Assembly (NCBI GenBank): GCA_008632985.1
Contig: QPGO01000047.1
Coordinates: 422,212-486,211 of the forward strand
DNA: 64,000 bases
Source of the DNA: Psammoneis japonica
Taxonomy: Eukaryota
Direction: 5' to 3'
Shown: in pieces, positions 1 to 64,000 of the stretch
Numbering within the stretch: position 1 is the stretch's first letter
Layout: each line of letters starts with the position of its first letter
Translations under genes and position numbers: made by a program
The notes under the pieces: model-generated
What the model saw: only the letters and a program-made list of their open reading frames with translations
Told to the model about the DNA's origin: nothing
The model's database searches: none

Positions 1-1526
1 GCACATGGGCTTTCAAACTCAAACGACTCCCGGATGGTGCGCCCTTGAAGTGCAAGGCACGACATTGCGTTCGCGGCGATTTGCAGAAACACGGGATCGA
101 TTTTTTCGAGACCTGCGCGCTGGCAGTGCAATGGTCGTCCATGCGCCTTCTCCTCACCACGGCACTCAAGGAAGGTTGGACTGCACGTCAAGTGGACTGT
201 GCCACAGCCTTCTGCCAAGCTGACATCAAGGAGAAGGTCCATGTAGAGCCTCCCAAGGGTTTCCAGCCAAAATCGGGCGCCGATCTGGTGCCAAAATTGT
301 TGAAAGGCCCACACGGCCTACGCCAGTCTCCCAAGTGCTTCTGTGAAAAGCTGAGGGACGGATTGCTCGAAAGAGGATGGATTCAATCCGCCATTGACCC
401 TTGTCTTTATTTCAAAAAGGGCATGTCATGTGTGGCACATGTTGATGACACCGTGTTCGCCGGCGCATCGGCCCAAGCCTTGGAAGCAGAGATTGCCAAG
501 TTGGGCATCTCTGACGATGAGCAACGCCATGTCTTTGATCTACGCGATGAAGGCGAAGTCGGCAACTTTCTAGGTGTCAAGATTCAAAAGCTCGAAGACG
601 GCCGATTCCTCCTGACCCAACCCGGCCCAATTGAGAAAGTTCTCCGCACCGCACAGATGACTGAGTGCAACGGCGCACCCACTCCTGCCTTGCCTGCTCC
701 TGCTGGCAGCGATGCCGACGGGCCACCGTTCGAAGAGCCTCATGACTGCCATTCCGTGGTCGGCATGCTGATGCATCTAGCGTCCAACAGCCGCCCGGAC
801 ATCGCTTGCGCGACCCATCAAGTCGCACGGTTCTCCTGCACACCCAAGGCCTCCCACGCTGCAGCTGTCAAGCGCACTCTTCGTCACCTGAAGGATGCGG
901 CCGATAAAGGACTTGTCCTAACTCCAACCGCCGATCAACGACTCGACTGCTATGTTGATGCTGATTTCGCGGGACTCTTCAGTGTTGAAGATGGACAAGA
1001 TCCCACGTCTGTCAAGTCACGTGCGGGACATGTCATTTATTGTGCTGGATGTCCGATTGTCTGGGTGTCCAAGTCACAGACCCTCGTCGCACTCTCTACC
1101 ATGGAAGCCGAGTATGTCGCCCTCTCCCAAGCGATGCGTGATCTCATCCCCCTTCGCGAGATCGTGAAGGAAATCAACGCGCTCGTTTTCGGACAGCCGG
1201 ACAGACAGACCGATATTTCGACACATTCGAAGGCTTTCCGACACGCCAACGACGGAACTGAGGATTCTCCCATTGACTCCACTAACCTCCCAGCATCCGT
1301 TGTGTGCGAAGACAATGCTGCCTGCCTCCAATTCGCCCGTGTGCCAAAATTGTCCCCACGAACCAAGCACATCGGCATTCCCTGCCATTGGTTTTGCACT
1401 AAAGTTGAGGCTTTGGAGATCAAAATTGAGCCTGTGAGCTCAGCTGCACAGCTTGCTGACCAGTTCACTAAAGGATTGACTGTTGATCTATTCCGCACTG
1501 GTCGTAAAGCCCTCATGGGCTGGTGA
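1..1526 (+). mobile_element. Ty1/copia retrotransposon pol, RT and RNase H part, TpA-hypermutated; continues beyond the window start
   Basis: ORF 45..1526 has copia motifs QVDCATAFCQA, KVHVEPPKGF, GPHGLRQSP (cf. LYGLKQSP), CVAHVDD (cf. YVDD), SRPDIACA, CYVDADFAG, STMEAEYVALS, EDNAAC, RTKHI and QLADQFTKGL. Conserved Tyr is mostly replaced by His or Cys. Confidence 0.95.
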
Positions 1527-1552
1527 CTGACAGTTCTCCTTCTCTTTTCGGT

Positions 1553-1871
1553 TGAGAGGGAGAGTCACGAGTCAACAACCGAGTCTGATTCACGGATGAC
1601 GCTTCCGGTCATGGATCTCTTCTTCCGGAAGAAATGTCCATTGAGTCTTCTAGCGACAGCAATCGGAGTGACACACACGACCGTCAGGTCACAATGTCAT
1701 CTCCAATCCCTCGTGAGATCTTCTCACAATTCGCATCTTTGGCACATCTTGTTGTCCCAAAACTGCTTCTTGTCATCCTCTGTTGCATTGTACAACCTCA
1801 AGAGAGTCCTGAACTCTCCATCCTACACAGTGCATTGTTGCATCCCAAGTGTTCGTCCACGTGTTCGAACA
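1553..1871 (+). repeat. Polypurine tract and probable 3' LTR of the copia element
   Basis: GAGAGGGAGAG lies just after the pol stop. About 300 bp of non-coding sequence follows, ending ...GTTCGAACA where the DUF6824-like gene remnant begins. No second LTR is in the window to confirm the boundaries. Confidence 0.45.
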
Positions 1872-2226
1872 ATGAAGAGACAGTCCCGCTCAAACACTGA
1901 GACTTTTTAATCATAAGAAATCGCCCCCCTCGTCGAGAAATTTCGTCCATAATTTGTTTTGCAATCTTGCGCTTTTCTTCTTTTGTTGGTGCAGCAGAGT
2001 GTTCATCCTTTCTCTGTTCTACCAGCCGACGAAGGTGCCGATTTCCAATGTGATTATTTGCACCAGACCCTCGGCCAAGCAGCACATCATTAGAATTCAT
2101 TTCAGCAATGAGGCCACTTGAAGCGTCTCGTTTCGTATCTTCTGCAGGGCGAGCAGATTCTGCGGCGACACCTTCTTGTCGCACACCCGCAGGTTTCTCT
2201 TCAGAAATGGGATCAGCATTCAGCAT
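1872..2226 (-). pseudogene. DUF6824-like diatom gene, truncated and TpA-mutated
   Basis: NDVLLGRGSGANNHIGNRHLRRLVEQRKDEHSAA...KRKIAKQIMDEISRRGGRFL matches the family pattern as I recall it. The expected Tyr reads His (DEHS), and the frame runs into the putative LTR. Confidence 0.75.
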
Positions 2227-5200
2227 TGTCTCTTCCGAATTGTGCGCTGCCTTTGCAGGGAAACAGTGGAGTCACACTCGCCTTTTTGTCGACACCTTGC
2301 ATTGTTGCCATTGGTGCGGGGAGTGTGTTGATGGAACAAACGTCAATGCAGGTGGGCCCTGCGGTGCAATGGCGACATGGCGACGCACTGCGCTTTCGAC
2401 GGCACATCGTTGGCAACGAACAGACAAAACTGAAAACGTCGTGCGCTGCGCAGACAAATTGCGAGTGGCGTTTGCGTCCGTCCGTTTGTCGGAACAAGAG
2501 GCTGTGGAGCCGAGGATGTGATTCGAACAGTGCTGCACACATTCATTCCGCAGATGTTGGTGGCACGGATCCTCCACTTACAGAGGTTGGAGCACCAGAC
2601 CCCTTTCACCATGGTGAAAGCAACAGTTGAGCTCCAGTTCATCATTGACAAGAAGTGCTGCTTTGGCAGCATCAAATGGTGCAAACAGCAGCAAAGTTGG
2701 AGCACACTTGTCTGGTCTCTTGTTGACTGCTGTGTGTCCTCAAAACTGAGTGCTGGACCACTCATCCACACAATGACTTGGAGCACAGACACCACATGAT
2801 TGTAAAATTCACACACTGATGATGCATCACATCACAAAGAGACATGCGCTGTTGTTGATTGCACCAAGTGCAAGCTCCTCAAAGAGCCCAGTCAAAAGGC
2901 TGTCCACAAAAAACAACAAAGAGAAAAAAGCCCAAAATTCAAACCACACCATCACATGGAGTGCAGGCAGCCTGGTTGACCTGCCCTTGCATTCCTGCCT
3001 TCTTTGTCATGACGGCTGTTGGTGGTGTGTGTGGCTGGGCAATTTCACGGTGGTGAGAGATCACCATTTTTTGTGTGTGAGATTTGCAGTTTGAGACATG
3101 AAAAATGAGTCTTTGTGCTGGAGTTTGATTGTGCCACATGGATGTGGCACCAAGCGCACATCATGTGACACGCGAAACTTGCAGACAAGAACGACCTTGT
3201 GATTTGTCCCCAAGTGACCCACCTCTGGAATGAAAACACATCAGACCAAGAGCCTCTCTCAACATCTCTTCTTCCCCCATGCTGCAGAGGCGGCACACTT
3301 CAAAACTTCAAACAGCACAGCTGGCTCCACTCCACAGATGCTTGGCAGCTGAGGTCTGTTTTGTTTTTCCCGTTGTCGCTCATGTCATGCCGCCGTGCAA
3401 CCCTTGTGACTCATGTGGCACACAAAAGCTGGAGGGGGGGAGGCATGGTTGTCAGAGCATGTCAAGACCACAGCATGGGCTCTCCAATGCCTTTTGCACC
3501 ACCTCACAGACAGCAGTCAGAACTCATTTGATGCCACCACACCACAGGGGACCTCAACCTCTTGTTGTTTTGAAACCTGCTGGTGCAGCTTGGTGTGGGT
3601 GCCACATCATCATCCATGCTTCAACTTGGGGCACAAGTCTTGGTGCACTGCTCAGTGTTGCTTGCAGCTTGCGCACTTCTTGCTCTTTGAGCCTTTGAGA
3701 AAATGCAATGATCAACATGAACAAGCTTCTGATGACAATGTTGTCCCTTTTGGCACTGGCAAATCAAGCCACAGGACGGCAAATGAGGCTGAGCTTGCTG
3801 GTGTCCTTGACAGTGATGACACCATGTTCTCACACACTGGCTCTGAAGGAACATGAAATCTTTGTCTGTTTGACTTCAACGCTGAAGAGCAATGTGAGGG
3901 CCAAGCATTTGGTTTGGCTTTGGCAATCCAGCTGGTTTTTTGCTGACATTGGTCCGCGACTCTGATGACACAGGTGGAGACTGAACCTTTTGGAATGCTT
4001 TGAGATCAATGACAAGCACTTGGTGGCAATGCTCACCCCAAATGGAAGAAAATGGGCCTTCAAGAACATTGGTTTGGCGCCACTCCATTGGAGCTGTCTT
4101 CAACACAATGCAAGTCCATGAGGGCAATGATCAGCTGACAATCAAAGGAAAGTGTCACAAAGCTGTTGATGAGCTGACACATGCTTTTTTGTGTTTGCTT
4201 CTGTTTTCTGCTCATTTTGACAGCACTGGTGGGGGAATCAGCTGTGGTGGCTCATGCTCTGCACCCAACTCAATGTTTGTTGGTTTGCACAAGCAAGGGG
4301 AGTCGGCTTTTGCCCCCAACCTCAATCTGATGAATTGTTTGTTTCAGAACATTGCTCTTGGCATTGGCGGAGGGGGGGTGGCCATCCTCTTTGGGCAACA
4401 GTCTCTCCCAGTGTGCAGCTGCGAGTCACAAATTGCGCAGTGCAAAGGCAATTCCAGATTGGCAGCCCAAGCTTTGCGGGTTGGCTCAGTGCCACTGTGA
4501 TGCTCATTGGTCCTTCATTGTTTGTGTCAACAACGCTGCAAGTCAGCAGGCAGCTTTGGTTGTTCTCAGTGGAGGTGTGTCACTTCCAATGGCAATTGCA
4601 ACTCCACTGTTGAGGGACATGTCAATGTTCTAGATGGACCCAAGTGCACTGGAATCGTTGACCTTTCAAGAGGCAGAGTTTGCCAATCATGCTCAACTGG
4701 CAAGCCATCTCTTTCTCTGTCAGTTGCACGCTCATCCTCTGGCGCTCCATCTGCTCAGCACTCTTTGGCAGGGACTGCATCTCCTTCTCTAGCTCTGCCA
4801 GCTGTTCTCCCATCTTCCTTGGCTCCATCCATTCAACTCCTTAAGATGGCCACTGATCTGACCTCTGTTTCACCGATGGCCACTGTCATGACTCTGAACC
4901 CAGCTCAAGGTGACACCAAAGCACCATCAAGCATGCCTTCAATGGGGGCATCCATCTCCATGGGTCCATCTGTGCCCTTTTCTTCCCCTGTCTTCTTGGT
5001 CTCCATGTGGCCTGCTGTTTTTGCTGCTGCTGTTGGTGCAGTTGTTGCAGTGCAGCACATTAAAACATGGCTCTGTTTGCACCTGTGGTGACTGTTGCTC
5101 TCGTGCCTGACAGAATGTGCGTTGTAAAGAATTTTTGTTCATGAATCTCTGCCACAGAAGCAAGCAGTGCAATTTGTTTGGCACATCACAAAGTCATTCC

Positions 5201-6899
5201 ATCAAACCCCGTTGTCATTGAACACGTTCAAATGGTGCAACGCAGAAGTCAAGCACACAAGAGGCGGCACATGACAGTGCAGCAACCAGACTCAAAATGG
5301 TCCAAGCCCATCAATTCAGCGCATGGCAGCTGACGCTGACGAGGAGCATCGGCTGGACAACATGATCAACCACACAAAGAAAGCTCTCATCTCTGCACTT
5401 CTTCAAATGGGGGTGTGGAAAAGTCAATCCAAAGTTGTGTCCTCTTGCATTGCAAAAGCCACCCAAGTTCCATGTCGCAGCAGCGACCTCTTGGAATTGG
5501 CCTTGCAAGTGCACCCGTGTTGCTTTGTTGGCAATGTTGCCAACAGTGTGCTTCCCCTTGGAACAACCATTCTGATGGGACAAGAACTGACAACGAGGTT
5601 TTTGTTTTTCTTTTGGCTTCTTGCAACCCAGGTGGGGATCATGCTGCAGTTTGAGTGTCGCAACCTGTCCCAAAGTCTCCCGTGCTGAAAGTTCTGACAT
5701 GAGCTTGACATCCGGCAGTGAAACTCTGCAGCATCAAGAAAATGCACCAATCCTTCCTTCTCCTTGGCATGCAGAGTGGGCAAGAGCCAATCGACAACTT
5801 CATTTGGCAGATGTGTTCAAGGTGACAGCCTCGTTGTCCCCCAAACCTTGTGGCAAATCAATGAGTTCACATTGCCAACCACTGACCAATGGGTGTCATG
5901 CAGCAACTGCACATTTTGCTGGTTGCAGACATTGGTGCAGAAAAACGTTGTTCTGAAGTGACAACCCTCCTGCCTTTGAAAGGGAATTGGAAAAGAGCAA
6001 GAAGAATGTGCAAAATGCAAGACCACTTGTGGTTCGGTGACACCGCTTTGTTGCAAGAGGTGAGCAACGATTTTGCGACTCATGCCAGCTGTTTCCACAA
6101 GGCTCCTGCCACAGTCTCCTTCATGGTCTCCTTGTTCTGGTTCTGCCTGCCTGGCAATTGCTCTGTCATGCAACGCCAATCCAAGCTGTTGGTTTCTGCT
6201 GAGCGAACGACTCGTCAAAGCACGGCAAGGCGTTTGGTGTTGTTGGTTCATTTTGGTGGCTTTGGCATCCTGTTTGGCTGGAGTCAGTGCTTCCAAACAT
6301 CATGATGCACTGCTTGTTGCATCTCATCAACATGTGCTTTTGCACGACTGCTTCAATCTCTGTGCTGAGGAAAGGGCGACTCTGAAAATGACTCCATTTC
6401 ATTGCACTTGCACAGAGCTTGAAGTTGTCATGCATCCAACTGCAGCAAACACTTGTCAAGCGGGAGCTCTTGAGACGTGCTCCCTCCATTGCCCATGCAC
6501 CGGCACACCATTTCTTTGTCCATGACATTGGCCCTTCTGGCAGTCGGAGCAATGCTCTGGCTTTTTGTCCAATCAGGTGGTGCATCATGTGAGTTGCACG
6601 CAAGCACAAAATGTTGCCGCACAGAAGACCCCAACAAAGGGCAGCGCATTTTGGTTTGCTCCATCATGTGGGAACTCATCGGCACAAGCGGCATTGGCTT
6701 CACAATGGATGGCATTCTTGAAGATTTTTGCATTTGAAGAGGGGTTAAATTTGGACCCAATGAAAGGCACTGCATGTGAGCTGCAGACTGTTGGCTCAAC
6801 TGAACTGTTTGAGCATTCTTGCATCATCATTTTTTCCAAACGCAGCAGCTCGACCGGAGATCAATGCACCAAGATCTAAAAGTTTTCAGGCCCAAGAGC

Positions 6900-8080
6900 G
6901 GGATCCTCTCAGAACACCCTGCAGCTTGGCCATCAAGCATCGTCCACCAGCGCAGTCACTCTCTGCTCCTGGTGCACCCTTGTCACCATCTCCACAAACA
7001 GTTGATGAACCGCACCACTTGCTGCTTGGGTTGTTGCCCGATGTCGGGCTGGCAAGGGCCATCGATTCACCATCTTCATTCGGAAAGGTGGGCCCGTCAT
7101 CCCAGTTGACACGGTCAACCTCAATGGAGTCGCCGTCCAAAAGGATCAGTTCATCAAAATCATTGTTCAAGTGAAGACAGGTTGCATCACACTCATGATC
7201 CAAGTCAACTCCCCCCGCTGGTGGCAGCATCAGCATTGTTTCTGAGAACGAGGCAGTCACCCAACAAGATTGCAAGTGGACCTCCATTGTCAACAACATG
7301 GCAGTTGGTTCCATCATCCTGAACCGTCCAGCCACTGATGTCAATGTCGCTTCTGGTTGGGTTGAAAAGCTCGAACCACTCTCCATCATGCTCTGATTCC
7401 ACACTGGCTGGGTTGCACACAATCACGTTGATCACCGCCCTGGACACACAGTCATTTGGTGCTCCCGGCATCCCCATGAACCACTCTCCATCATGCTCTG
7501 ATTCCACACTGGCTGGGTTGCACACAATCACGTTGATCACCGCCCTGGACACACAGTCATTTGGTGCTCCCGGCGTCCCCATGTTGCCAGCTCTGTGGAC
7601 GGCAGTTGCATTGCACCAGTGGTTTGGACAGGTGGCACCTTCATCCCAGTTGACACGGTCCACCTCGATGGAGTCACCGTCCAAAAGTGCAAGCTCGTCA
7701 ATGCCTTGTTCAAGTGAACGCAAGCAGTGTCGCACTCATGATCCAAGTCCACTCCCCCATTGGTGGCAGCATCAGCATTGTTGCCAAGCACTGGACATCC
7801 ATTGGGGCCAGTCAAAAGAGGATCGCTGTTGTCAATGACATGGCTGTTTGAACCATCATCCTTGATCGTCCAATCATTGACATCTGCTTGACTGGAAGAA
7901 GGATTGCATGGCTCAAACCACTTGCCGGACACCCACGATGCCACCACCGCTGGGTTGCACATGATCTCATCAATCACTGGCTGCCCTGAAGCCGCGCCAA
8001 GAGCAAGGCTTGCCATCAAGAGAGACACCTTGAAAACCACACTGTAGAAAGTGTTTGTTGGTTTGAGTGTAAAAATGCAC
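6900..8080 (-). pseudogene. Secreted protein with tandem lamin-tail-like (LTD) domains, frameshifted and TpA-mutated
   Basis: A signal-like segment (VSLLMASLALGAASG) precedes two LTD-like repeats: VIDEIMCNP..GKWFE..DVNDWTIKDD and VINVIVCNP..GEWFELFNPTRSDIDISGWTVQDD..EVDRVNWD..GAPGAESDC. Expected YNP reads CNP and probable DYEYD reads DHECD. Confidence 0.75.
7373..7582. repeat. 105-bp tandem duplication, 2 copies, in frame
   Basis: 7373-7477 and 7478-7582 are nearly identical (GAACCACTCTCCATCATGCTC...CCCCAT). Confidence 0.95.
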
Positions 8081-11000
8081 TTGATGAAATTGTGAGAGCA
8101 ATCAAGAGACTTTTTCTGTGGTCTGATGCACTGCCCTCTGGACAAAAGTTGAGATCTGTCATTCATGTCATGACCAATGTCTGTTCCTGTCAATCAAACT
8201 GATCAACAGAAAATCAGTCATGCGCTGTCAAGTGAGTTTTAGAACCATGAATGTGCCCAATGACACAGGGCACACGTTTGCATGAACATGCCTGTAAAAT
8301 GACACGACTCATCCAGATGAATCGAGCCAAGTTCATGGCACTTCCATCACTCAGATGCAGTCTGTTGGTGGCGGTTAGCCAAGAAAGCGGCAAAACTGCT
8401 GCAATCAGACAAAGCAATCCCTGCACATTGGCTGCCAGTGCATTGGAACAGATGAAATCCAACCATGCCATTTCATCTGGAGTTTTCTGCCCAATTCCCA
8501 ACATGGAGTGTCTTGTTGATGTCGTCATTCAACAGCATGACAGAGTTGGCCATTCATGTGCCAGCACAGAGACTCAACTTTTCCTTGTCAAGCACACCTT
8601 CAAAAGCTGTGGACGAGAGACCAACTTGGCATCAAGACCACCATGAGAGGGGTGAGAGAGCACTGGCATGATGATTCTAACCGCGCGTGGATGAGCACTT
8701 GTGATTGTGTCAGGCACATTTGTTTTCAAAGCTCGGCTGAAACAATTGCAAGGTGATCAGAATCATCAATCTCTTGCACCTTTTCCAGTCGAGCCGTGGG
8801 TGTCCCCTTGGTTGCTTGGGCATGCTGGCCTGCGGCTTTTGGCCCAACTTGTCAAAGCTGACGACTTGTCCCTCCACAGTGGCTTGGGGTTCTTCTTCCA
8901 GGCAGTCCAGAGGGTGGAACACATTGTCCAAGTTATCCGCAAGGACATTTTTCAACAGCTGGTCTTCCAATTGGATTGTGCATGAAAGAAAAGGCCCGCC
9001 ATGGCTTCTGACAGGATGTTGGTGCCAGTGGATGAACAACAGCTTCTCCATTGACTGCTGAAACTCGGAACGACTCAACTGCTCCCTGCACCATGGCTGG
9101 AGAGGTTGCGATCGAAACGAATGAGTTTGTCTTCCCTCTTTTGAATCTTTCTTTCTCAGTTCATTTTCTGGCTGAGCCTGTTGCGTTTCTACATTCTTGT
9201 CATCAGAACAGAAAACAAGGCACACTCTCGTGGAGACGTGTTCCAGTCCCAGGTGACGCACAAAACGACAATCGGATTTTTTGAGTGCAGTTTGTGTGTG
9301 TTTTAGTGTGCAAAGCATTTTAATGAAAATGCTTGGACGGATTGACTTTCACAGGCTTCTAGAGCATGAACACTTAAATGGTTTTTTGAGGGGCATTCAA
9401 ATCCTCATGGGACATGTGTCACAAACTTCCTCAGCAGACTCAATGCTGATTGTGCGTCAGCAGATTCATGCTGAGATTTTTTTGCAGGTGCAGAAAACCC
9501 ACCAAGTGGCATCGTAGAAAGACACATTTAGGTGACATCCAAATGACGGCAACATTTTCGCCGAAAATCATCCGTTGTGTTACAGGGTCAAAACTTGGGG
9601 TGCCTGGATCGTCAACGGTGGGAGGAACAACGGATGAAAGAGAGTCTGCTGGTTCCACGGAGCAGGACGACAAAAGCAGGCGGCAGATCGGCATGAGCAA
9701 TGGCAGAAAGTCGGCGCTTGGGATCAAGTGACTCGTCCAGTCCATAAAAGTCGTGACAGCAGCTTGGAGAATGGAGGCAGCGCCATGGCAGGACGGCATG
9801 GACCGGGGCAGAAGCAGCGCGCCATGACTTGTTCCAGACTCAGGTGCCCTCACGCGCGAAAAAATGACCCTTTTCGCATGAAACGCGCGGTCCACACTTG
9901 CGGCACCATTTTCGACAGTAAAAACATGACAATTTTCAAATGTGTTGTCATGGGCACATGCAGAAAGGTCTTGTGCGTGTGCCCATGCATTCGAAACTGT
10001 CGATGGACTCAGTTGTCAGTCTCTAAATTGTGCCGCAAGTTGAGAGCTCTGTTTTCCGAGGAGCGATTTACAGATGTCTAAATGTGTGTGGAAACGCATG
10101 AAATGTTGCTCTTGTGCATAAATTAACCCTCTAACACAACACAATTAATCTTTGGTTACAATGCGCGAGTGCAACTTTGATTCAACGGATCGAACAAAAC
10201 ATGCGTTGATTCAAAAGTTTCGGACGACGTGAGAAGAAGGGTGGCTCAGCCCACGCAATGGCGTCGACTTCAGACCATTTTTCACTGTTTGAGAGGCACA
10301 AACAATTGAGACACTTGAATCCGTCGAACACATTGAGGAAGCATGCATGGCAATGGCAAAGAAATGGTCCTCAGAGGCAAATTGTGAGTGAGTTGAGGCT
10401 CAGTTGTTGTTGCTGACAGATTTGGCATCATTGTGCCGCGCTGCAACCTGCAACAAGCATTTTCACTGTTGTCATTGATGCCACAGACTACATCAAATAC
10501 GGAGGTCCTCGTCATGACATTGAATTTTCCACAAGGCTGAAAAAAGTGGGCCGTCATGGTCGCTGAAAGCCATGGCCGGTTTGGCTGTTTGTTTGTTCGA
10601 GTTCATTCTGTTCATTTTGCTTGTGAGCAATTAACATGATCAATGTGATGAAATATGTGCGATGTTGCACAAAGCATAAAAAATTTTTTTTCTGCGAAAA
10701 GGGGCATGTGCGCGCCACCCAAGTCTGGAACAAGTCCCGCGGTGGAACGGCGACGGAGCCAAAAATGGTGGCGGCGACGGCGCAGACCCGTGGACTTAGA
10801 CATCCCCACATTCGAGTCCCACACATCAAGACATGGGACAAGGAGGTTCAAGGTGAGCGCCATTGCGAACGAGAACGGGGAAAAAGATGCGCAACTCTGC
10901 GAGAATCAGAGCTCACCACACCCCGAGTCATTCTGACCCATTCCAGAGCCAGGGCTCACTCACATGGCACGACCCAATGGAGCACAACACTGTCAAGCAG

Positions 11001-37640: not shown

Positions 37641-37649
37641 CCCTCCCCT

Positions 37650-49527: not shown

Positions 49528-49528
49528 C
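48215..49528 (-). mobile_element. Second, more decayed gag-region fragment of the same copia family
   Basis: Colinear with ~42215-43495 (TPDQKMLLREPP, QNFQRHAFDS, LTDCHMIFNDFLQLRA, DFQLGH), with more frameshifts and fewer CG. Confidence 0.92.
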
Positions 49529-53110: not shown

Positions 53111-55987
53111 AGAACTCAATCAATCGATGCTTTGTTTAGCCATATTGCACCCATTGAATCGATTAATAGAAAAAACGCCTTGAAAAGGTTCAGGACGTGC
53201 TGGGCAGTGATCCACTCTATGACGACAATGAAAGCAGTGCCGAATTTGCCAAACAACCGACACAGCACTCCAGTCTTTTTCTCGCCCAAATTGAATCAAG
53301 AGGGACCATCCTTTCGAAAGGAAGTATGGCTCGAGTATACACCCAAACCACCACCATCCTCCACGCGTTCGAGCCGTGAGTCCATGAGCAGCTCATGGCA
53401 TCTACCTACGGTACATCGCAAGCCTACTTGTACTAGCTAGCTTTCTTGTGGTGCAAAACACTCCTTCTCTCCAAGTGGAAAGCATCGAACAAGCTGTTCG
53501 AATTCGAGATGTGTTATAAACGCCCATCCCGGCACCAAAACTCATACGGCTTCGTCAAGCGAGTGCGAGTGAAGAATCTATTTATCAGGGAATCACCCGT
53601 GGAGATTGTACGTTGGCATTAACGGCAGTCGGTAGCTGAGAAGGATACAGGAGAAACAGCGAAGTGAACGGGGAATGCCGACTCTCTTGGGTTGGCAGAG
53701 TGTTTCGATTCATCCAGAGTGTTTCGATTCATCCAAGCTGGTCTTGCAACCTTTTCTGACTATGGAACTCTCTGTACCTCTCTCATTCTTGCATCTTCTC
53801 AAAATGCATGAAGAAAGGTTTTGTTTGCACTGAGTATAAGAAAGCTATCAAAGGCACTGCGGATATCAACTGCGACACGACGGCTAGTGGTACCGACGGT
53901 TCCGGAGGGAGCGACTCAAACACAAGGCTATCCCTCACGGACATTGGAGGCTTGTTCATTTTCTTTTATGGTTTAACAGATTTTACCGTCTGCAGTCTGC
54001 ATGGTCCTGTTTCAGAAATGGAATCATAAACGAAAGCTTAAACAAAACATCGATCAGCAACACCACAAGACTGGCATGGTGGTAGTGAGTCTGCCGACGA
54101 GCCTTTAAATTCCGCAAGAGCGCAACCGAAAGAGATTCGCTGGCAACTTTATGACCAAATAATGGCGACAAATAGAAGGATGGAACAGCAAATGAGCGAT
54201 ATGCTCCTTATGCTTGATAGCGGCGGATATGAAACGGAAGCATCCCCGGACTACTGTACCATTGAGCATAAATACACGGCAAAAGAAGACCTCGTCATCT
54301 ACAACACGACACGAAGTAAAACTACCGACTGCCATGTTCAAGGGTATCGAAGGGCCATGTTATGTTCTCTTTGGGAATCCATCAACCAGTGCAGGGCATG
54401 CGCGGGACTCGTACCTTCTGCGATTGCTGAGATGCTGCGTTGCCCCCTTTGTTCGTGGCCTACAGCATTATTGTCCACACGGGTGGACCCAGTGTCGGAG
54501 GTGATGGACGGAGTCTCCTCGGTTGACGCCATTCTATGAAATACTTTTAGGCACAGAATTTACATTGGTTCTAAAACTATTTGGAATTATGCAGAGACTC
54601 TCAAGGTGAAAGCGGCGCCACCGAGTCTTTTGATGTACAAAAGAGAGTAATAGACGATTGGAATACACCTTTTCTGTTCCATTTCTGGCTTGTGCCTTGT
54701 GCCGTGTTCTGCTTATTGTCTGAAGAGCTTTTGAGTCTTTTTGAGAGACAGTGACGCTTTCGCCTAGACAGTTTCAGCCCGTCTTTGCTTCGGTCATATA
54801 GTGGCCGCATCCGTTCTTCGCATATGAAGAGGCAATGTAGAGTAGTAAGCTCAAGTAAAATTGTCGTCGTTCCAGTGAGTTTCCGAGTCAAAAAGGTTCA
54901 TTCCTTTATTGAGATACCTTTTTCATATTGTATCCAACAGTTGCTGGTTATGCTCCTTCAGTAGTCGCTCATTGGAAGTTATGTTTGAACGTCAGGTACT
55001 GCGTCCTTCCGTGATTTATATCCAAACCTTCAAACGACAAAGCAAATCTATGATTGAGTGCTTTACAGGAAGAGGGGTGGGGTTGGGAAGATTCGAGGTT
55101 TGGGGGCAACGTAAAATGCTTTTTCTCTTCCTGTATGTCTTCAAGCTCGTTTGCAATGACCGACGTCATGTAGACCAAATCTTGCCAGAGCAATAAATGA
55201 AGTATTTGCAATTCATCCTCTGTTGAAAACAACTTTGCAGCAATCGCCTTGCTTGCCAAGCCATCATCTTTAAGAAGGGTGCAAGCATCAAATGTTTGTT
55301 GATGCGTCCAAGGTTGTTGGTATACTGTCGAAGAGAAAATCGTGCATCGAATTCTACTGCCGCTCCATATGTCAGGAGATCTTGTTCAAATCGCCGCGTA
55401 CTTAGAAAGGCACTCCGTCTTTGCTCGTCACGCTATCGTTGGACCATCAAGAGAACAGGCATGATGATCAGAAAGCGTGGGTTGGTCCGTGAAACGTTCC
55501 GTTGACACATCGGTCAAAGAGCCAAAGGAAGAAACTCGAGGAAGTATGCAACCCTCTGATCTCGTCTTTCATAACTGTGCTTCGTATATTCTGGTGATTC
55601 TACCATGCAAATAAAGGGAAAGGCTAATTCTTGGCGCTCCAATGAAATGAGCAACAAAATCAGCCTGGCATGCATGTCTTGCTCTTACTCATCGATAGAG
55701 AAAGCCGCTTTTTCCACCGGCGACAGTGGTTTTGTGGCCAGAGCGAATCATTTCAAGACACAATGTCTGCTTTGCGTTTTGCGTCATCGCGACATTGCCC
55801 CCAACGCTTTCGGGGTGCAACCACCATCATGACTACAACGTTTTGGTCGAGATGCAAAAGAACAAAAATCATGCGATATCTCGGATTTTCATTGCGTTCA
55901 CAACACATTGGCGCGCAAATCTTCGAACTTCAATGGACAGATGGGCGAACCTCATTTTTTCGGAAGGAAGCGGCGCCGCGGAAGCAG

Positions 55988-56490
55988 CCAACTTTCGCAA
56001 CTCGGGACTGAGAGAGATGCGATCGAATCGTGCGAAACTTGGTCCGTCCATTGATGCGTGAAGAAAATGAGCACTGGTGCTGCGCAAAATGAGCACTGGT
56101 GCTGCGCGCAAAATGAGCACTGGTGCTGCGCGCAGCACCACTGCCTCATCCAACTTTCGCAACTCGGGACTGCGAGAGATGCGAATCGTTCGAAACTTGG
56201 TCCGTCCATTGATGCGTGAAGAAACTGAGCACTGGTGACTGCGCAAAATGAGCACTGGTGCTGCGCGCAAAATGAGCACTGGTGCTGCGCTCGCGCTGCG
56301 CAGCACGCAGTGCTCATGCCCAACTTTCGCAACTCGGGACTGCGAGAGATGCGAATCGTGCGAAACTTGGTCCGTCCATTGATGCGTGAAGAAAATGAGC
56401 ACTGGTGCTGCGCAAAATGAGCACTGGTGCTGTGCAAAATGAGCACTGGTGCTGTGCGCAAAATGAGCGCTGGTGCTGCGCTGCGCAGCA
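55988..56490. repeat. Nested tandem array: 3 units of ~160-170 bp, each containing 20-22-bp AAAATGAGCACTGGTGCTGCGC subrepeats
   Basis: Units begin CCAACTTTCGCAACTCGGGACTG at ~55988, 56150 and 56320. Confidence 0.93.
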
Positions 56491-56722
56491 CCAGGGAGTC
56501 GCCTCAAATCTGTTGAAACTCGAACAATGAACATCACACCAGTGAATGAACAAACGCACCAATGACAACATGCATCACATGCGTGTTCAAAATGTGCATG
56601 GACGCCAATTGGGCTGATGCTCAACATGCGTGCACAAATGACATGTGGAGATTCTGTTTGTGTGTCTGCACACGCAATCTTGATTGTTGATTAAAAAGAG
56701 TCATTTTCACTGAAAATTGGCG

Positions 56723-57079
56723 GACGCATTCCAGGTCTAGGTGGGACCTCGCACCACTGAACTGTGACATCGACAGTTTTTTGAGTCTCGTCGTATGTCG
56801 CACACACAGATTTCTGCGTGATTTTTTCGACATTTTGTGTCATTTTACGGTGCACTTGTTGAGCGATCCGTCCAACAACTTTTGACATTTTTTGTCACAG
56901 CGCGATTCTACAATGTCTTAAGAATTGCGTGAGAGGCACAATTGTGCCACAAACTTGGCCGTTTGTTTGATGTTGAAGACAAATGTGTCCATCAATTAAA
57001 TTCTCGCACTGCGGAGCTCGCACGTGGAATTCAATGGGCCCAATGTCACACGGAGTCCCACCTGGGGCTGGAACGCATC
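56723..57079. mobile_element. MITE-like element X (TIR GACGCATTCCAG...CTGGAACGCATC), 4-bp TSD GGCG, partly TpA-mutated
   Basis: GGCG at 56719-56722 and 57080-57083. Inverted homologue of 57923-58318. Confidence 0.8.
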
Positions 57080-57922
57080 GGCGATGGTTTAAACAAAACC
57101 AAGTTTCAACAAAAAAAAACTGTTGAAACTTGTTCAGACAAATGGCAAAAGCCATGCTCTGAAGCATGTGGCTGCGTCAATGTGAGAATGAGCATTGCCA
57201 TGGTCCGGGCAACCCACCGTTGCCTCAGGGGATCCCGCGTTCCCGCCTCTCAAATCAGCTCCAGACAACCTCAGTGGGAAAACGGTGCTGGTCTGTCCCC
57301 ACACAGGCACTGAAGGACCCCATCCAACTGACCCACACCCATCCAGACAGCACACCAACTGACCATCCACCTGCAACATTGACATCGTGCCTGGAAGTTG
57401 ACAAAAACCCACCACCACACCAAAAAACTGTGCCACAATTAATTCAAGTGTCGCGTGCACAGCCTGCAATCTTGTGCGCAACAACTGCCCCTCACTTGCA
57501 CGACTGCATTGACCATGCAATGCCCAACAAAAAGTTGTTGAAACTTTGAGTTTCAACAGTCGTTGTTGAAACCATCTGACGTCACCAGTTGCCACGATGT
57601 CATCCCCACAATGTCTGAATTCAGATGAATTGACAGGAGGCAGAAAATGCCAAAGACGCTGTTGCAATGGGTGCCACAAGGACTGCCAAAGCTTGGCATG
57701 TCAGGACCAGCAGCAGAAGCCAAGAGCCGGGCTCAGTCTCTTTAAGAGGCTTTAAATGCCCACATCAAGAACTTTGCTTGTCTCTCAGGGACGTTTTGCC
57801 ATGGCGTCACTGCCATTGCTTCAAGGCGGTTTGTGTCATCGTGCAGTGTTGAGTGTCAGCTTGAATTTGGCTTGCCGCGCGCTGCAGCAGTTTTTGATGC
57901 AGCTGCTGGTGCATGACGTCAT

Positions 57923-58318
57923 GACGCATTCCAGACGTAGGTGGGAATCCGTGTGACATTGGGCCCGTAGACTTCTACGTGCGAGCTCCGTAGTAAAATT
58001 ATATGGTAATTAAAATGTCAATGATCGCCAACAGAAAATGAGGCAATTTTGCGAACGCACAAACTCGCCCATGATTGAAGTGCATCATTTTTTACTTAGC
58101 CAGTTACATTCTTCAGACATTGAAGAATGTAACTGGCGCATCGTTGTTTCTATAAATTCGTTATATAAAACGTCTGGGGCTTCGCAAAACAGCGAGTCTG
58201 GACAATTTTTTTTAAATGTCACACGTAGAAATCTACGTGCGAAACATACGATGGATGATAAAAATTATTTGTGTCACACGTCAGCACTACGAGCTCCCAC
58301 CTAGGGCTGGAACGCGTC
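57923..58318. mobile_element. MITE-like element Y of the same family, 4-bp TSD TCAT, TA-rich
   Basis: GACGCATTCCAG...CTGGAACGCGTC with TCAT at 57919-57922 and 58319-58322. The interior keeps many TA. Confidence 0.82.
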
Positions 58319-58337
58319 TCATGCAATGTAGAGTCCG

Positions 58338-58492
58338 AAAGTTTCAAGTTTCAACAGTTTGTGTGAATTTTTGTTGAAAGCATTTTTGTTGAAACTTGGA
58401 AGTTTCAACAAAAAACTGTTGAAACTTTGAAGTTTCAACAACTTGAAAAAAGTTTCAACAGTTTTTTGGTTGAAACTTCCAAGTTTCAACAG
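58338..58492. repeat. Cluster of inverted GTTGAAACTT/AAGTTTCAAC motifs
   Basis: About ten copies in alternating orientation, with further copies at ~56510, 57100-57131 and 57536-57571. Confidence 0.85.
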
Positions 58493-58830
58493 ATTTTTGA
58501 CTTCCGTTGAGTTTCTTTCATCTTGCACATTTGTGCCTGCATAGATGCAAAACACAAAAGGCAATGAGCAATTTCACAATGGATCGACAACGGACACCAC
58601 ACGATTAGAAATGTCTCTCCTGCTTGGCCATTTTGTGCAAGATCTAGCACCGCATGCGAGCGTGCGAGCGACTTCCGCCGACGCACTTTCAACAGATTTG
58701 AGGCAACTCCCAGTGCTCAGTCAGCACACATCACACATCATTAAAGTCACGATCACATCATCACTGTTCAACACGGCTCGGAGCCACCAAGACACAGTGT
58801 GGCACTGCTGAGTGAGGTGCAAAACACTGA

Positions 58831-59799
58831 GTGTGGCCAGCATTGCTGTCACCAATCCATGCGCCAAGAAAAAGTCTTCTGCGTCCACCGGCAAGTGCCG
58901 CAAGCACTGCAGCGGACATTCTTGCAAGGGCCGATGGAACACAGCTTTCCCAATGGTCGGCGATCAAACTTTTTGAGTGGCATGAAAAAGAAAATGATGA
59001 GTCTTTCTTTGATGAATTGGATGCTCTGGATGACAAGGAAGCAAAAGGCAAGGCCATCATGAAGAGCTTGATCGGCCTGTCTCAGTGGATGAAAAATGCG
59101 CCCATTCTGCAACAAAATGATGCTGGGAAAGTCATGGGTGAGCGATCCACAAAACAACATTTTTCAAGCATCAAAGAGACAATGAAGAACAAAACTCCAA
59201 CACTGGAAATGTGGGACAACCACGAGGAAAATTGGTGCACCAACCTGCGAGACAGCCTGGGTCAACAAAATTTGGATTCGGCAGCCACAAGCAAAGGGAT
59301 TGCCATGAAGGAGCTCATTGTTCAACCAGTTGACAAAAACAAGCTGTTTGCTGGGCGCAAGCTGTGTGATGCCATGCCTGATTCAGCGCCTCGGAAAGAC
59401 ATGCATTTCTGTTGGGGGGCCATGGAGCTTGTGGAATCTGTTCTCACTGATGAGCAAAGACTGTTGCACAAGATAAAGCGCTCTGAACGGCAGGCAATTG
59501 AAGATTTTGACAGCATCCTGGCCGCAGTTGCGCACAAAATGGAGCACGCAGCATTTGCCAAAATGGGTGAACTCAACAAAAAGACAATCTCCAGCCTGCG
59601 GAAGACAATGACTGGTGTCAGTGGCAGGTGCAACAAGCATGGTGAAGCCAACGGGTGCATCCGCCACAAAGGCAGGAAGAGGAGTCCTGCGGAGATGTCA
59701 ACAGAGGGAGGAACAGGTGTCTTGACTTCGTTCTTCTCAAGAATGAAGAACGCAGCATCACCAGCGCGAGCAAAGAAACACCGCACAAGTGCTGAATGA
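58831..59799 (+). pseudogene. TpA-mutated remnant of a real coding sequence, probably transposon-derived (possibly Crypton-like)
   Basis: Protein-like, Lys/Glu-rich 322-aa frame with no Tyr (STKQHFSSIK, WDNHEENWCTNLR). The family assignment is only a resemblance and no catalytic motif is visible. Confidence 0.4.
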
Positions 59800-59878
59800 T
59801 GGTGAATTGTTGTGCATTGAATGGTGCATTGTGCAGATGTGCTTTGGGTGCAGCAGGTTTTGTTCTTTTAATTGTGGG

Positions 59879-60240
59879 AACTCTCGTGCATCCCTCACCA
59901 CCACAACCCTTGAGAGAACAAAGCAACAGAAGAAAAACCGCACAAGCAACAAATGACAAATGCCACACAGTCATTGTTCTGATTGTGTGTCAACTCTTGT
60001 GCATCCCCTCTCATTGCAGTGCTTCCAGTCACTGTCATTTTAATTCTGCTGCTGTGCAAACTCTTGTGTGCCCCCCCCCNNNNNNNCCCCCCCCTCTCCA
60101 CCACAATCCTCATTGAACAAAGAAAGGGAAGAAATGTGACACAAGCACTGAATGACACATCACACAGAGGCACACAACAGCAATTGCTGTTCTTTTGCTG
60201 ATTCTGCACAAACTCTTGTGCACCCCTCTCCACCACAATC
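59879..60240. repeat. Degenerate short repeats (AACTCTTGTGCA(T/C)CCCTCTCCACCACAA) spanning a 7-N assembly gap at 60080-60086
   Basis: Copies at ~59879, 59992, 60059 and 60211. Confidence 0.7.
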
Positions 60241-61099
60241 ATCATCAAACCTGAGCTTCACAACTTGGCAATCATCATCATGCACAAGCTTGTTGAGTGA
60301 ATCAAGTGGAAACTTGCAAAGGTTGTCAATGTCTGCAACTCTAAAAATGTTTCCTCTGCCTTGTTTTGGTGGAGGAAACAAAACAGATGCAGTCACCGAT
60401 GGACTTGCATTGGCACAAAAGCAGGGCAGAGACACTTGGTGGGCAGCACAAAGGTTGCACATGAGTTTGGCAAACTCTGCCTGCAGCTTTTTTGATGGGT
60501 GGCACCTGGTCACATTCCAACCAGACCTGTCACATTGCTGCAAACGCAGCCTGCCACGGATGCAGAAGCTTGCACTGTTCTGGCCAGCCGTGAATGGATC
60601 AGATGCTTCAGAAGAAAAAACTGGTTTCTTTTTTTTCTTCTGCAATGACCACTGCTTTTTCTTCCCAGTGGGTCTTGAAACTGAGGCAATGGCAAGAACC
60701 AAAGGATCATTGCTGCTTTCAGCCACAATGACACTTGATGACAATGATGGCAATGAACACAAATCAACCACCTCGTCAACTTTCTACAACATGGCACTCA
60801 TCCCACAACATGTCACAGTGATGCGTTTGACCTTGGAGCAACCTTGTCATTGGTCAACACACTGCAGCCACATCTTGCATTGATGAACATGTGCCATCTG
60901 TTTGATGAAGTTGTCAACTTGATGAAGGTGTCAGCATTGGTGAGGCATTGCTGCTCACCACTCATTTTTGTGAAAAGTTCATGGTCAAGTTGAAGATTCC
61001 TTTGGATGCAAGGCCAAACTCTTGCAAGTTTCTTAGATTCAAACTTGAATGTGAGAGCATGTTGCTGCCGCTGGAGGCATCAGGAATCTGGGAAGGTGC

Positions 61100-62400
61100 A
61101 GCATGAGGCATTGTGGTGCTGGGTGCTGCTGGCGCCACTTCTTGCAAACAAAAATGGAGTCTCTTCATTCTCTTGGCTGTTTCATCCCTTTTGATGAGCT
61201 CCAGGATGCAGAGTTGCATCATCCCAGCCATCAGAATTGTGCGGTTGATCTGCATCTCCAGGAGACATTGCTTGGAGCAATCTGAACTTGTTCTTTGTAA
61301 AATGTCAAGGCCTCTTTTTCTTCTTGATGAAGTCTGTGAGAAGAGTGCCAGGATTCACTCACCTTCTTTGAACTGCAAAGCAATCCATGTCTTGCAATCT
61401 TGCCAAAAGTTGGCAGCATTGTCTTTTGTGCCATGCTTTTCTGAGTTGGACATCTGCAGTGAATTCTTCATGAGCAATTCTTCCACAACTGTGAGCCCAA
61501 TCTGCACCATTTCCCATGTCTTCCACAGCCTGTCTGAAAGAACACAAGAGCTCTGGAAGGCACTCATTGGGAATGCAACGGCAATGGATCGTCCATGGTC
61601 CATGGTGCAGAGCAGCAGCATGTTGCTGCTTGCCAACACAATCACAGAAGAATCTGCAGAATTTGGCATTTGACAATGTTGTGTGGGCAACAGACAATCA
61701 TCAAGAGTTGGAGGAGTTGTCTTCTCATGGCTTGTGATGTGGAGCTCCAGCTGATGCAATCTGCAGCCACAACTGCACTCAATGCATCTTGCCCAGGGAG
61801 TGCATGAGAGCTGCACAATTTCTGCGGTCCGATCCATTCTTTGGGCACAATGCAATGCCCTCACATTTCCACAGCAAAGCGTGAACCAATGACTCTGTGA
61901 CCAAGACTCCAGAAGAAAATTTTGCATGGAAATTGACAGGTTCTCCTGTTGTTCCCAAAGACCAGATTGCACTGCAGAAATCATGTGGCTCCAGTGCATG
62001 CACCAGGCACAGTTGCAAAATTTCACCACTGTGCCTGCTGGCATTTTTGCTGTGTTTTCAGGTCATTGTGTCACTTGCTTGAACTCAGCATGTGATTTGA
62101 TGACAATCGCTGTCATTGGTGCAGCGGCATTTGCCTTTGCAAAAGTGTGACATTTTCAACAGAGAAATTTTGCTCAACCAAATTGGTGATTTTTCATCTT
62201 GTCATCATCTGTCTGCACCACCCAAAAACAAAGGAAAACAGACAATGGCTGTTTTGAAGACAAGGGCAATGATGGAGCATGTGCTTTGCAAAGCCCACGT
62301 CATTGTGTGTCCCATTTCTGTCACAAAGAAGTTGCACAGTGGCTCAATGTGAAGTTGAGTCATGTGATCTCAAGGCTTGAGAACAAAGCATTGTCAACAT
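61100..62400 (-). mobile_element. Possible Mutator/MULE-like transposase remnant, heavily decayed
   Basis: Fragments VVQTDD, CNCAW and a SWIM-like CIECSCG occur in a plausible order. The evidence is weak. Confidence 0.3.
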
Positions 62401-64000
62401 GTTGCCTTCAAGCCAAGTCAATGGTGTCCCCACAGTGTGGACTTGATGGTGCAAACCTTTCCTCAAAATGGTTGCATCTGGTTTGAGATGGCAAGGTGGC
62501 AGCAACAGCAGCTGTTGGCAAGTCAAGCAATGAGGTTTGGCCTGGTGTTTGAGTCAATGAATCAAAATGCACAGAGGCACAGCAACATGAGGAGTTTGCA
62601 GAGCAGGTTTTTCAAAATGGAAAAGTGCCGCAGGCGGGAAATCCTGTGATTGAAAATGTCAATGCTGCATTGAGTGACATGTGGAGAAGTTCAGAATTGC
62701 AGTCAGGAGGAAGGAGGAGCAACACACAAAATGGAGGGGCTTTTTGCAGCACAACTCCAACTTGCACACACTCTCAGGCCACCCCCTTCAAAAGGGTTCA
62801 GCATCAATTCTGCATCATCAAGTTTGACACCTCCTCCCTGTGAAGAGTCCCTGGATTCCTGCAAAGTCAACCAAGAGCTGCGCTTTTGGATGCAATCAAA
62901 CCAACAAATGCACCGTGGGACGTTTGCGCCACAACATCAGTCCAGCAGATGCCAGAGGCCATTTTCTTCTCATTGCGATGCTCAACAATCCCAAGAACAA
63001 TCAAGGTCAATGATTGGCCCAAAACAATTGTCATGATTTGGTTCATCTTGTTTTCACTGTCACCCCCATTGATTTTTTGTTGATTTCCTTTAAGCAGTGC
63101 AGGGGCAGGTGCAAGTCAGAGCTGCGCTCACTGCCACGCATGGCTGTCTCCTCCAACTCCACTTCTGTCAACAGAGACAGACGTCAATGGCTGGAACTGT
63201 TGTGCTGTTTCCAAGGTGCTTTTGTGTCAAAGTGTCCTCTGCCAATGAGCCACTCAATCTCAATCCTTTTCTGGAAAGAGCTCAAAAACAATTCTGGATG
63301 CCGTTGGACATGTTCCACACAATGTTGGCCTGTCCAAGCACCCCACAGGAGTCCTGTCATTGCAGGTGGCTCCAATGCACAAACTGTGGGTTCCAGCAAA
63401 ATGATGGGAGTCTTTTGTGTGCAGACTTTGGACAAAACACAGAAACTTGGTGCTGCCGAAAATGGCGCAAGAGCACTGTGAGATGTGCCACACAAGTTGT
63501 GGGGTGCCTTCTGGAACAAAATCAAGATTCAGATGCTGAAGAAGCACCAAAAGTTTTTGGTGTGTGTGATTCTAGTGTGTTGCACCACCCAGGCAGCACT
63601 TGTCTTTGAGCAACGTGAAAAGAGCAAGAAACCCGTGAGTTCTGCAAAACTTTGGAGTCTCAGGCACCGCAACAGAGTGGTGTTGTCTCAAGTGCATGGC
63701 ATTTGAAGCTGATGGAACACCAAGGCACTTTGGCAAGACTCTGCTCTTGCTTTTCACTCCACAAGTGCTGGCTTTTTATGATCAGTTTTCCTCATCTTGA
63801 TTGATTTGCACCATGTCCAAGACATCGACTGCCACACTTGAATTAAATGAACAGACAGGTCTCTCCAGGAAATGCTTGCTGTTCAACTCAAAACCCATTG
63901 AGGCTGCAAGATTTGCTGGGCTGCCGCCATGGTCAATCCACACAAGAATGGAAGAGGGCAGTGTCTTGGCCATTTGAAAGGACACTCAGTGGACTCAGCC

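Follow-up and report, generated by a model that had tools for sequence, protein, structure and literature searches.

A 64,000-nucleotide (nt) stretch of the Psammoneis japonica genome (NCBI GenBank assembly GCA_008632985.1, contig QPGO01000047.1, positions 422212–486211 of the forward strand; hereafter the window, numbered from its first letter) alternates between gene-bearing DNA of normal composition and four domains from which the dinucleotide TA has almost vanished. The depleted domains span positions 1–11003, 25700–30343, 37743–49529 and 55877–64000 (domains 1 to 4), and two Copia long terminal repeat (LTR) retrotransposons, here called Copia 1 and Copia 2, lie in domains 1 and 3, respectively. 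We mapped the observed/expected (o/e) ratio of TA in 1-kb windows and set the domain limits from individual TA positions, by which the edges are sharp, within about 200 nt. The limits lie close to those in the original prediction, which had been made from the letters of the window and had described four multi-kilobase domains with nearly all TA gone. Our analysis shows that in these transposon-bearing domains A:T pairs have been converted to G:C almost only at 5′-TpA-3′, after insertion, at the level of DNA and symmetrically on the two strands.

Pooled over the depleted domains, TA occupies 186 of 35,538 positions (5.2 per kb, o/e 0.08), compared with 1,272 of 28,447 (44.7 per kb, o/e 0.63) in the normal, gene-bearing domains. 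In 1-kb windows the ratio is 0.00–0.24 within the depleted domains, boundary windows and an island near 58 kb excepted, and 0.40–0.93 between them. The longest TA-free gaps measure 1,828 nt (2803–4631) and 1,793 nt (61298–63091), and another in domain 1 reaches 1,621 nt. Runs of AA, AT and TT persist, as originally described, with o/e ratios of 1.20, 0.91 and 1.22 in the depleted domains; the AA ratio in normal DNA is 1.13. Stop triplets have become scarce, with TAA falling from 9.4 per kb per strand in normal DNA to 1.9 and TAG from 9.5 to 1.5, and stop-free frames of at least 120 amino acids (aa) number 2.5 per kb versus 0.9 per kb in normal DNA. Tyrosine makes up only 0.18% of open reading frame (ORF) residues in the depleted domains, versus 2.76% in normal ones.

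The missing TA can be traced to its products. Deficits of 39.5 TA and 23.7 CG per kb add up to 63.2 per kb, compared with an excess of 65.4 per kb for TG plus CA, and the sum of the pyrimidine–purine (Y–R) steps TA, CG, TG and CA is constant, at 236–251 per kb, across all seven segments of the window. Y–R steps have therefore been redistributed, not lost, as transitions from TA to TG or CA and from CG to TG or CA predict. G+C content is correspondingly about 3 points higher in the depleted domains (0.493 versus 0.466).

Protein alignments identify the same changes residue by residue. Copia 1 (3–1523, plus strand) comprises the last 507 aa of a Copia polyprotein of about 2,000 aa, that is, the reverse transcriptase (RT) and the part that follows it (RVT_2, E = 2.2e-30), and is about 60% identical to the C termini of polyproteins 2,084–2,299 aa long; these related polyproteins match nowhere else in the window, apart from one weak match in Copia 2. 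Aligned with 91 homologues, the window copy departs from 41 of the 262 columns that are at least 80% conserved. The differences comprise 9 TA>TG, 9 TA>CA, 2 CG>TG, 2 other AT>GC, 9 transversions and 10 reachable only in two steps or more, with a classifier that favoured a TA ancestor wherever several ancestors were possible. TA>TG and TA>CA thus make up 18 of the 31 single-step changes, and their equal split agrees with the earlier claim of A-to-G change in TpA on either strand. Among the 18 events, three turn CTA into CCA (Leu to Pro) and five affect the first base of a codon that follows a T-ending codon (Thr to Ala three times, Ile to Val twice). Nine of the 11 conserved Tyr residues are altered, five to His and four to Cys, whereas conserved Asp, Gly, Cys and Met are unaltered. 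Across the 15 columns in which Tyr is the majority residue, the window copy reads His or Cys at 12, and each of the 91 homologues at no more than two. Three of the replacements reported originally are found here in full, with PHGL (nt 309) where homologues have LYGL, HVDD (nt 438) in place of the catalytic YVDD, and IACA (nt 801) in place of IAYA.

Domain 1 also holds ORFs encoding lamin-tail-domain (LTD) repeats (6889–8193, minus strand), split over three frames (Pfam LTD, E = 2e-09 and 1.2e-4). They have 2,055 library matches, and related proteins carry many LTDs and are very large, reaching 6,922 aa. Positions 7001–8000 contain no TA, and at the four columns where Tyr predominates among the 148 homologues the window reads Cys, Cys, His and Cys; coding sequence of a non-transposon type has therefore been converted too. 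A fourth motif change claimed originally, from YNP to CNP, holds only in part: EPCNP is borne out by a column that is Tyr in 70 of 148 homologues, whereas IMCNP falls in a column that is mostly Gln. Copia 1 and the LTD ORFs, the two coding sequences compared with homologues, have lost conserved residues and by this measure appear to be inactivated. The LTD ORFs further carry a 105-nt tandem duplication (7373–7582), which is younger than the hypermutation because its copies are 99% identical.

Copia 2 provides the record of conversion after insertion. It is a complete LTR retrotransposon (37449–44803, minus strand) with TG..CA ends and a 5-bp target-site duplication, GACGG, and it matches the Pfam families RVT_2 and SH3_retrovirus. 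Self-BLAST detected its LTR pair, which comprises an LTR bordering normal DNA (37449–37640) and an inner LTR (44612–44803), both of 192 nt and on the minus strand. Copia 2 is just 25–30% identical to the relatives retrieved, which makes them too distant for a conserved-Tyr comparison. The two LTRs of an element are identical at integration. Those of Copia 2 now differ at 20 of 192 positions, 19 of them transitions and 1 a transversion. Ten of the 20 positions lie in five doublets that read TG in one LTR and CA in the other, five are TA in one versus CA or TG in the other, one is a CpG difference, one is the transversion and three are other transitions. Random placement of the substitutions yields a mean of 0.32 doublets, and five were reached in 0 of 2,000 simulations. 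Each doublet means that a single ancestral TA (or CG) was hit in two separate events, on one strand in the first LTR and on the opposite strand in the second.

Further repeats carry the same pattern. A third LTR copy (44440–44617), arranged in tandem with the inner one of Copia 2, differs from it by four TG/CA doublets (0 of 2,000 simulations), and a 1.3-kb repeat pair in domain 3 contains 29 doublets versus 6.4 expected (again 0 of 2,000). As a control, two paralogue pairs in normal DNA yield 2 and 0 doublets. Transversions account for 1 of 20 and 2 of 16 differences in the LTR comparisons. The LTR differences, which postdate insertion, together with the Copia elements in domains 1 and 3, uphold the original claim that conversion took place in the DNA of transposon-bearing domains.

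Conversion did not stop at the ends of the element. An uninterrupted paralogue of the empty insertion site (52824–53080, plus strand), in normal DNA with its TA retained, aligns continuously with positions 37311–37448 plus 44804–44923. Compared with this paralogue, the flank outside the domain retains 4 of 5 TA, and the 120-nt flank inside the domain reads CA at both alignable TA sites. The LTR bordering normal DNA is less converted, with 5 TA left, than the inner LTR, with 2 left, and the first 460 nt of the interior keep 2 TA. The process therefore acts in place and fades at the domain edge. By a rough estimate, about 11 and about 14 of some 16 inferred ancestral TA sites per LTR have been converted on a background divergence of about 1% per LTR, which would put the TA rate, again roughly, two orders of magnitude or more over background.

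The few surviving TA are not randomly distributed with respect to their neighbours. In the depleted cores (2137–9300, 25701–30342, 37744–49528, 55878–57900 and 58350–64000), 108 of 7,647 Y–R tetranucleotide sites still read TA, compared with 1,270 of 6,902 in normal DNA. We took relative survival as the share of Y–R sites still reading TA in the cores versus normal DNA, per flank class; the values are approximate, since ancestral TA frequencies were taken from the normal domains. Relative survival is 0 for ATAT (0 of 378 sites), 0.014 for both GTAC and ATAC/GTAT, 0.021 for ATAG/CTAT and 0.066 for ATAA/TTAT, and rises through CTAC/GTAG (0.097), GTAA/TTAC (0.114), CTAG (0.144) and CTAA/TTAG (0.151) to 0.321 for TTAA. 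R-TA-Y thus appears to be the preferred site and Y-TA-R the least completely converted. An attempt to assign the edited strand for each flank from tetranucleotide excesses failed, the excesses being unbalanced against a baseline taken from normal DNA.

The original account of the composition was right about TA loss and overlooked a parallel depletion of CpG, with a pooled o/e of 0.51 in the depleted domains versus 1.01 in normal ones and a minimum of 0.04 in one 1-kb window. CpG loss is uneven, leaving 8.4 CG per kb in domain 2 and 39.0 per kb in domain 3. Copia 1, with 11.8 TA per kb left, has o/e ratios of 0.23 for TA and 0.90 for CG, Copia 2 (37744–44611) has 0.09 and 0.72, and the 1-kb windows of domain 2 have 0.00–0.04 and 0.04–0.25. 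TA loss runs ahead of CpG loss, and the two are separate processes, not one. CpG methylation of diatom transposons is well established. We read the CpG loss as ordinary decay of methylated CpG, which marks the domains as silenced and probably methylated. CpG loss in the depleted cores is itself flank-dependent: GCGC stands at a ratio of 0.98, and TCGA and ACGA/TCGT at 0.36–0.40, of their normal share.

We also looked for the depleted sequence in a public read set, which contains 53% of sampled words from 36.5–46.4 kb; no RNA data set is among the public runs listed as containing it. Contigs assembled independently from these reads by k-mers were compared with the window. They lie on the unique flanks with no differences, at a word depth of about 49–60; they cover 37107–37557 (0 differences) and 48385–48922 (1 difference), and they span the right boundary of domain 3 (49439–49852, 1 difference). 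Over Copia 2 the summed read depth rises to 1,400–2,700, with 3,282 contigs that depart from the window at 407 transition versus 112 transversion places. Nine of the differences in the read layout of domain 3 were examined; they are mostly at CpG or unrelated, and they reveal no ancestral TA. The contigs rebuilt from the reads show TA-poor sequence, and errors of the assembler or of polishing are excluded by them.

Relatives of these elements elsewhere retain their TA. Among 80 related metagenome elements, TA o/e is 0.36–0.85 (median 0.62) with one exception, and the homologues aligned with Copia 1 keep Tyr; intact relatives are thus not equally TA-poor with His or Cys at the altered positions. 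The exception is a 1,789-nt metagenome Copia relative (L065) with 5 TA, a TA o/e of 0.04 and a CG o/e of 0.20, which reads TCVDD, LMHL and KCH where its relatives carry Tyr. At least one other sample thus also bears traces of the process. As the scan used Tyr-containing peptide patterns and was biased against converted copies, 1 in 80 is not a frequency.

The original prediction called the mutation repeat-targeted and a candidate genome-defence system, and the window demonstrates neither. Two tandem ADP-ribosyltransferase ORFs (33610–34641 and 35926–36894, both minus strand; Pfam ART, E = 5e-12 and 6e-11), in the normal-TA domain adjoining Copia 2, share 82% identity across about 700 nt; neither this pair nor a repeat at 13.6–14.2 kb (88% identical), also in normal DNA, is depleted. 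The empty-site paralogue, in a normal domain, is likewise undepleted. Positions 47.1–48.4 kb, at about two to three times the single-copy read depth, are depleted. Sequence duplication in itself is apparently not what sets conversion off.

The remaining features were surveyed by Pfam scans of 119 ORFs no shorter than 120 aa and a further 141 of 70–119 aa, and by PHROG scans of 47 ORFs (307 scans in all). Domain 1 (68 TA, 6.2 per kb) contains, beside the 3′ part of Copia 1 and the LTD ORFs, degraded sequence. Domain 2 is the most decayed, with 6 TA in 4.6 kb (1.3 per kb) and 8.4 CG per kb; it has no Pfam or PHROG match and no bounding terminal repeats. The rest of domain 3 (44804–49529) is older degraded sequence that contains a 1.3-kb repeat of 42186–43495 at 75.6% identity. 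Domain 4, which runs off the window, has 53 TA in 8.1 kb, 30 of them in one unconverted island of about 400 nt (57930–58330) with normal CpG; the island is either a recent small insertion or a sign of an episodic or sequence-guided process. A 170-nt tandem array (55988–56454; 2.8 copies, 91% matches) with an internal repeat of 22–24 nt lies at the left margin of the domain. Farther in, a fragment of a RusA-like Holliday-junction resolvase (60163–60783, minus strand; Pfam E = 2e-07, PHROG E = 3e-08) adjoins a run of seven N (60080–60086), an assembly gap. This ORF, for which a word-based search found no homologue, may hint at a viral or other foreign origin of domain 4. Pfam and PHROG gave no family identity for 44.8–49.5 kb or, LTD and RusA aside, for most of domains 1 and 4; Rfam gave no match in the window, and a CFEM match below threshold among the ORF scans was disregarded. 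For a metacaspase (Peptidase_C14) ORF in normal DNA (14297–15199, minus strand), the closest named proteins come from Nitzschia, Fistulifera, Seminavis and Phaeodactylum (54–62% identity), the best database match is 74% identical and no identical protein is on record; because the named relatives are diatom proteins, the host is a diatom.

To our knowledge, no eukaryote had been found before a 2026 preprint to direct A:T>G:C change at TpA against invading DNA. The precedent comes from a single rhizarian alga, Bigelowiella natans (Mettrop et al., bioRxiv 10.64898/2026.01.13.699255). Two integrated viral regions accounted for 231 of the 302 nuclear mutations in its mutation-accumulation lines. 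Of these 231, 230 were A>G or T>C, in every case at TpA; the rate, about 6e-7 per site per generation, was about 1000 times background, and only some lines were affected. The B. natans genome contains 124 clusters that are poor in TpA and rich in CpA and TpG, its TpA-poor coding sequences are enriched in RT and DDE domains, and the authors propose an adenine deaminase of the ADAT2 type (bioRxiv 10.64898/2026.01.13.699255). The window resembles B. natans in the change itself (TpA to TpG or CpA, seen here in the mass balance, in 15 of 20 LTR positions and in 18 of 31 single-step changes), in the almost exclusive occurrence of transitions (19 of 20 LTR differences), in TpA-poor clusters and in confinement to discrete non-host regions, with Copia in domains 1 and 3 and the gene-bearing DNA between the depleted domains normal; the LTD coding sequence is hit as well.

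The two cases differ in several respects. The host there is a chlorarachniophyte (a rhizarian) and here a diatom (a stramenopile), and the targets are giant-virus and virophage inserts there, LTR retrotransposons and neighbouring sequence here. De novo mutations were measured in B. natans, whereas the evidence from LTRs and homologues is historical. The active nucleocytoplasmic large DNA virus region in B. natans has a TpA rho of 0.45 and the virophage region is undepleted, compared with an o/e of 0.08 in the window and 0 of 378 sites for ATAT. The preference for RTAY over YTAR and the co-located CpG decay occur here and do not figure in the available text of the preprint, which also makes no mention of diatoms. 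The original prediction knew of no description of the phenomenon in diatoms. This still stands, since a full-text literature search, with subscription journals outside its coverage, found no report of the TpA signature in them, and passages of a Phaeodactylum mutation-accumulation paper (PMC6604790) report no TpA effect; given the B. natans preprint, the phenomenon as a whole is nevertheless not wholly new. The signature has thus been known since 2026, and what appears to be new is the diatom host, the LTR retrotransposon targets, the near saturation and the RTAY preference.

Better-known hypermutation systems do not account for the loss of TA, in agreement with the original reasoning on two of them. 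Repeat-induced point mutation (RIP) of ascomycete fungi is likewise a DNA-level burst of dinucleotide-specific transitions, by which transposons are inactivated where they sit and their copies drift apart. RIP changes C to T, mostly CpA to TpA, so that it makes TA and stops and leaves DNA richer in A+T, whereas here TA is destroyed, TAA and TAG vanish and G+C rises from 0.466 to 0.493; the dependence of RIP on duplication is not seen here either. Decay of methylated CpG has the same products, TpG and CpA, and is present in the same domains, but it cannot remove TA, it is confined to CpG where the TA loss here (39.5 per kb) exceeds the CG loss (23.7 per kb), and in Copia 2 it has been the slower of the two. 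Elsewhere it proceeds without TA loss, as in another metagenome Copia relative (L023, 1–5315) with a CG o/e of 0.03 and an ordinary TA o/e of 0.47. APOBEC3 acting on complementary DNA (cDNA) and ADAR acting on double-stranded RNA share with our case the hypermutation of mobile elements by base deamination next to a fixed 5′ neighbour. These enzymes act before integration on single-stranded cDNA or on RNA, and give G>A or A>G on one strand of the element alone with identical LTRs; here changes occur on both strands (9 versus 9), after integration, with differing LTRs and converted flanks.

After transposons had inserted into the diatom chromosome, the DNA of the domain bearing them was converted, TA to TG or CA, until hardly any TA was left. 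We propose that the process is the same as that in the B. natans lines: adenine in DNA would most likely be deaminated to hypoxanthine by a deaminase preferring a 5′ T, and the silencing machinery responsible for CpG methylation, not duplication as such, would guide it to silenced DNA. Taken whole, as TpA conversion plus an enzyme-driven, silencing-directed process of the B. natans type, this is the best explanation and a probable one, if far from certain. Its chemical step, adenine deamination by a 5′-T-preferring deaminase guided by the silencing machinery, is our first choice, held tentatively and at somewhat less than an even chance. The natural target of the TadA/ADAT2 family is the A after U33 of tRNA, with C next in the bacterial substrate, which would suit T-A-Y.

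The strongest competitor starts from thymine. A dioxygenase of the TET/JBP type might oxidize T at TpA in silenced DNA to 5-hydroxymethyluracil or 5-formyluracil, and mispairing with G or mis-repair would then give T>C. Because TA is its own complement, sequence cannot tell T>C from A>G, and the 9:9 split in Copia 1 fits both routes. Dinoflagellates place 5-hydroxymethyluracil for T preferentially at TpA and TpC, and 5-formyluracil promotes A:T>G:C transitions. Conversion so close to completion, with transitions making up 19 of 20 LTR differences, would, however, need a very efficient and clean miscoding lesion, and 5-hydroxymethyluracil itself pairs faithfully with A. We regard the thymine route as unlikely, though worth keeping in view alongside adenine deamination.

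Error-prone repair synthesis in heterochromatin, one of the candidates in the original prediction, fares worse. A Y-family polymerase, similar to polymerase eta at the WA motifs of antibody hypermutation, would be recruited by repeated repair of methylated or damaged transposon DNA, and the errors of polymerase eta do favour A after T or A and are often A>G. AA is undepleted here (o/e 1.20 versus 1.13), so the motif is TA, not WA; the A:T transversions that such a polymerase would frequently make are rare (1 of 20 and 2 of 16 LTR differences); and RTAY sites are 98.6–100% converted, unlike stochastic polymerase error. On this evidence the polymerase route is quite improbable.

A sequencing or assembly artefact, in which modified bases were misread as G or C or the sequence was rewritten in polishing, is less probable still. 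The platform of the read set is not on record, the reads are possibly the assembly's own data, and some long-read base-callers err at modified bases. Yet independent k-mer assembly of the reads gives 0–1 differences at a word depth of about 50–60, and strand-specific misreading of palindromic TA would yield mixed calls that include CG, which is instead depleted. Conversions also vary between LTRs and between copies, and an unrelated metagenome contig (L065) shows the same pattern.

ADAR-like editing of retrotransposon RNA (A to I after U) before reverse transcription, so that copies would arrive mutated, can be given hardly any weight. Retrotransposons are indeed present in two domains, and ADARs prefer a 5′ U, a point also found in the Discussion of the B. 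natans preprint (bioRxiv 10.64898/2026.01.13.699255). Editing of RNA predicts A>G on the sense strand only, as opposed to the 9 TA>TG and 9 TA>CA found; moreover, LTRs identical at integration differ by independent conversions, flanking non-element DNA and the LTD coding sequence are converted too, and conversion fades in the outermost LTR. Equally implausible is an intrinsic composition, with elements that were always TA-free through selection or a TA-poor donor and no mutator: TA is mildly under-represented in most genomes (o/e 0.63 in the normal domains here), yet homologues carry Tyr where the window has His or Cys, catalytic YVDD included, 79 of 80 related loci have a TA o/e of at least 0.36 (median 0.62), the LTRs carry doublets, and the normal-DNA paralogue keeps TA where the domain copy has CA.

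Several points count against the enzyme-driven, silencing-directed conversion that we favour. Some TG/CA doublets could derive from CpG rather than TpA; in the Copia 2 LTRs, 15 positions are of TA type versus 1 CpG difference, with 6–7 CpG still present. If the read set is the assembly's own, as it may be, misreading at the level of chemistry could still have occurred. The window sequence discloses no enzyme, base modification or chromatin mark. Domains 2, the rest of 3 and most of 4 are without a recognizable transposon protein, so that domains 1 and 3 are the only ones demonstrated to bear transposons. The unconverted island means that the process is not continuous over the whole of domain 4 or that the island is recent. 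The TA deficit of Copia 1 relative to foreign relatives is offset more by high CG than by TG plus CA, in a comparison for which these relatives, 51–58% identical and from other hosts, are an uninformative baseline. The flank preference, as said, depends on ancestral frequencies borrowed from normal DNA. Set beside these points is the enrichment of substitutions at TpA, in the LTR pair and in the conserved columns of Copia 1.

Finding the signature at saturation in the retrotransposon domains of a diatom shows that the process is peculiar neither to one species nor to viral inserts. The window also gives a picture of its endpoint, with TA, Tyr codons and TAA and TAG stops gone and the reverse transcriptase dead. 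Depleted domains mislead gene finders, because open frames of at least 120 aa number 2.5 per kb in them versus 0.9 per kb in normal DNA, and they conceal transposons from protein-family searches. The RTAY flank preference is a constraint that any candidate enzyme must explain. The many sequenced diatoms open a comparative-genomic route to that enzyme, and a natural TpA-specific DNA editor would be of interest to genome engineers. It is conceivable, though less likely than not, that an ancient enzyme-driven genome defence is common to diatoms and chlorarachniophytes and edits R-TA-Y sites of double-stranded, silenced mobile DNA until its TA is exhausted, a base-editing counterpart of RIP widespread among stramenopiles, alveolates and rhizarians (SAR). 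If this is true, the enzyme, whether a TpA-specific DNA adenine deaminase or a thymine modifier, should be findable by the presence or absence of the signature across diatom genomes.

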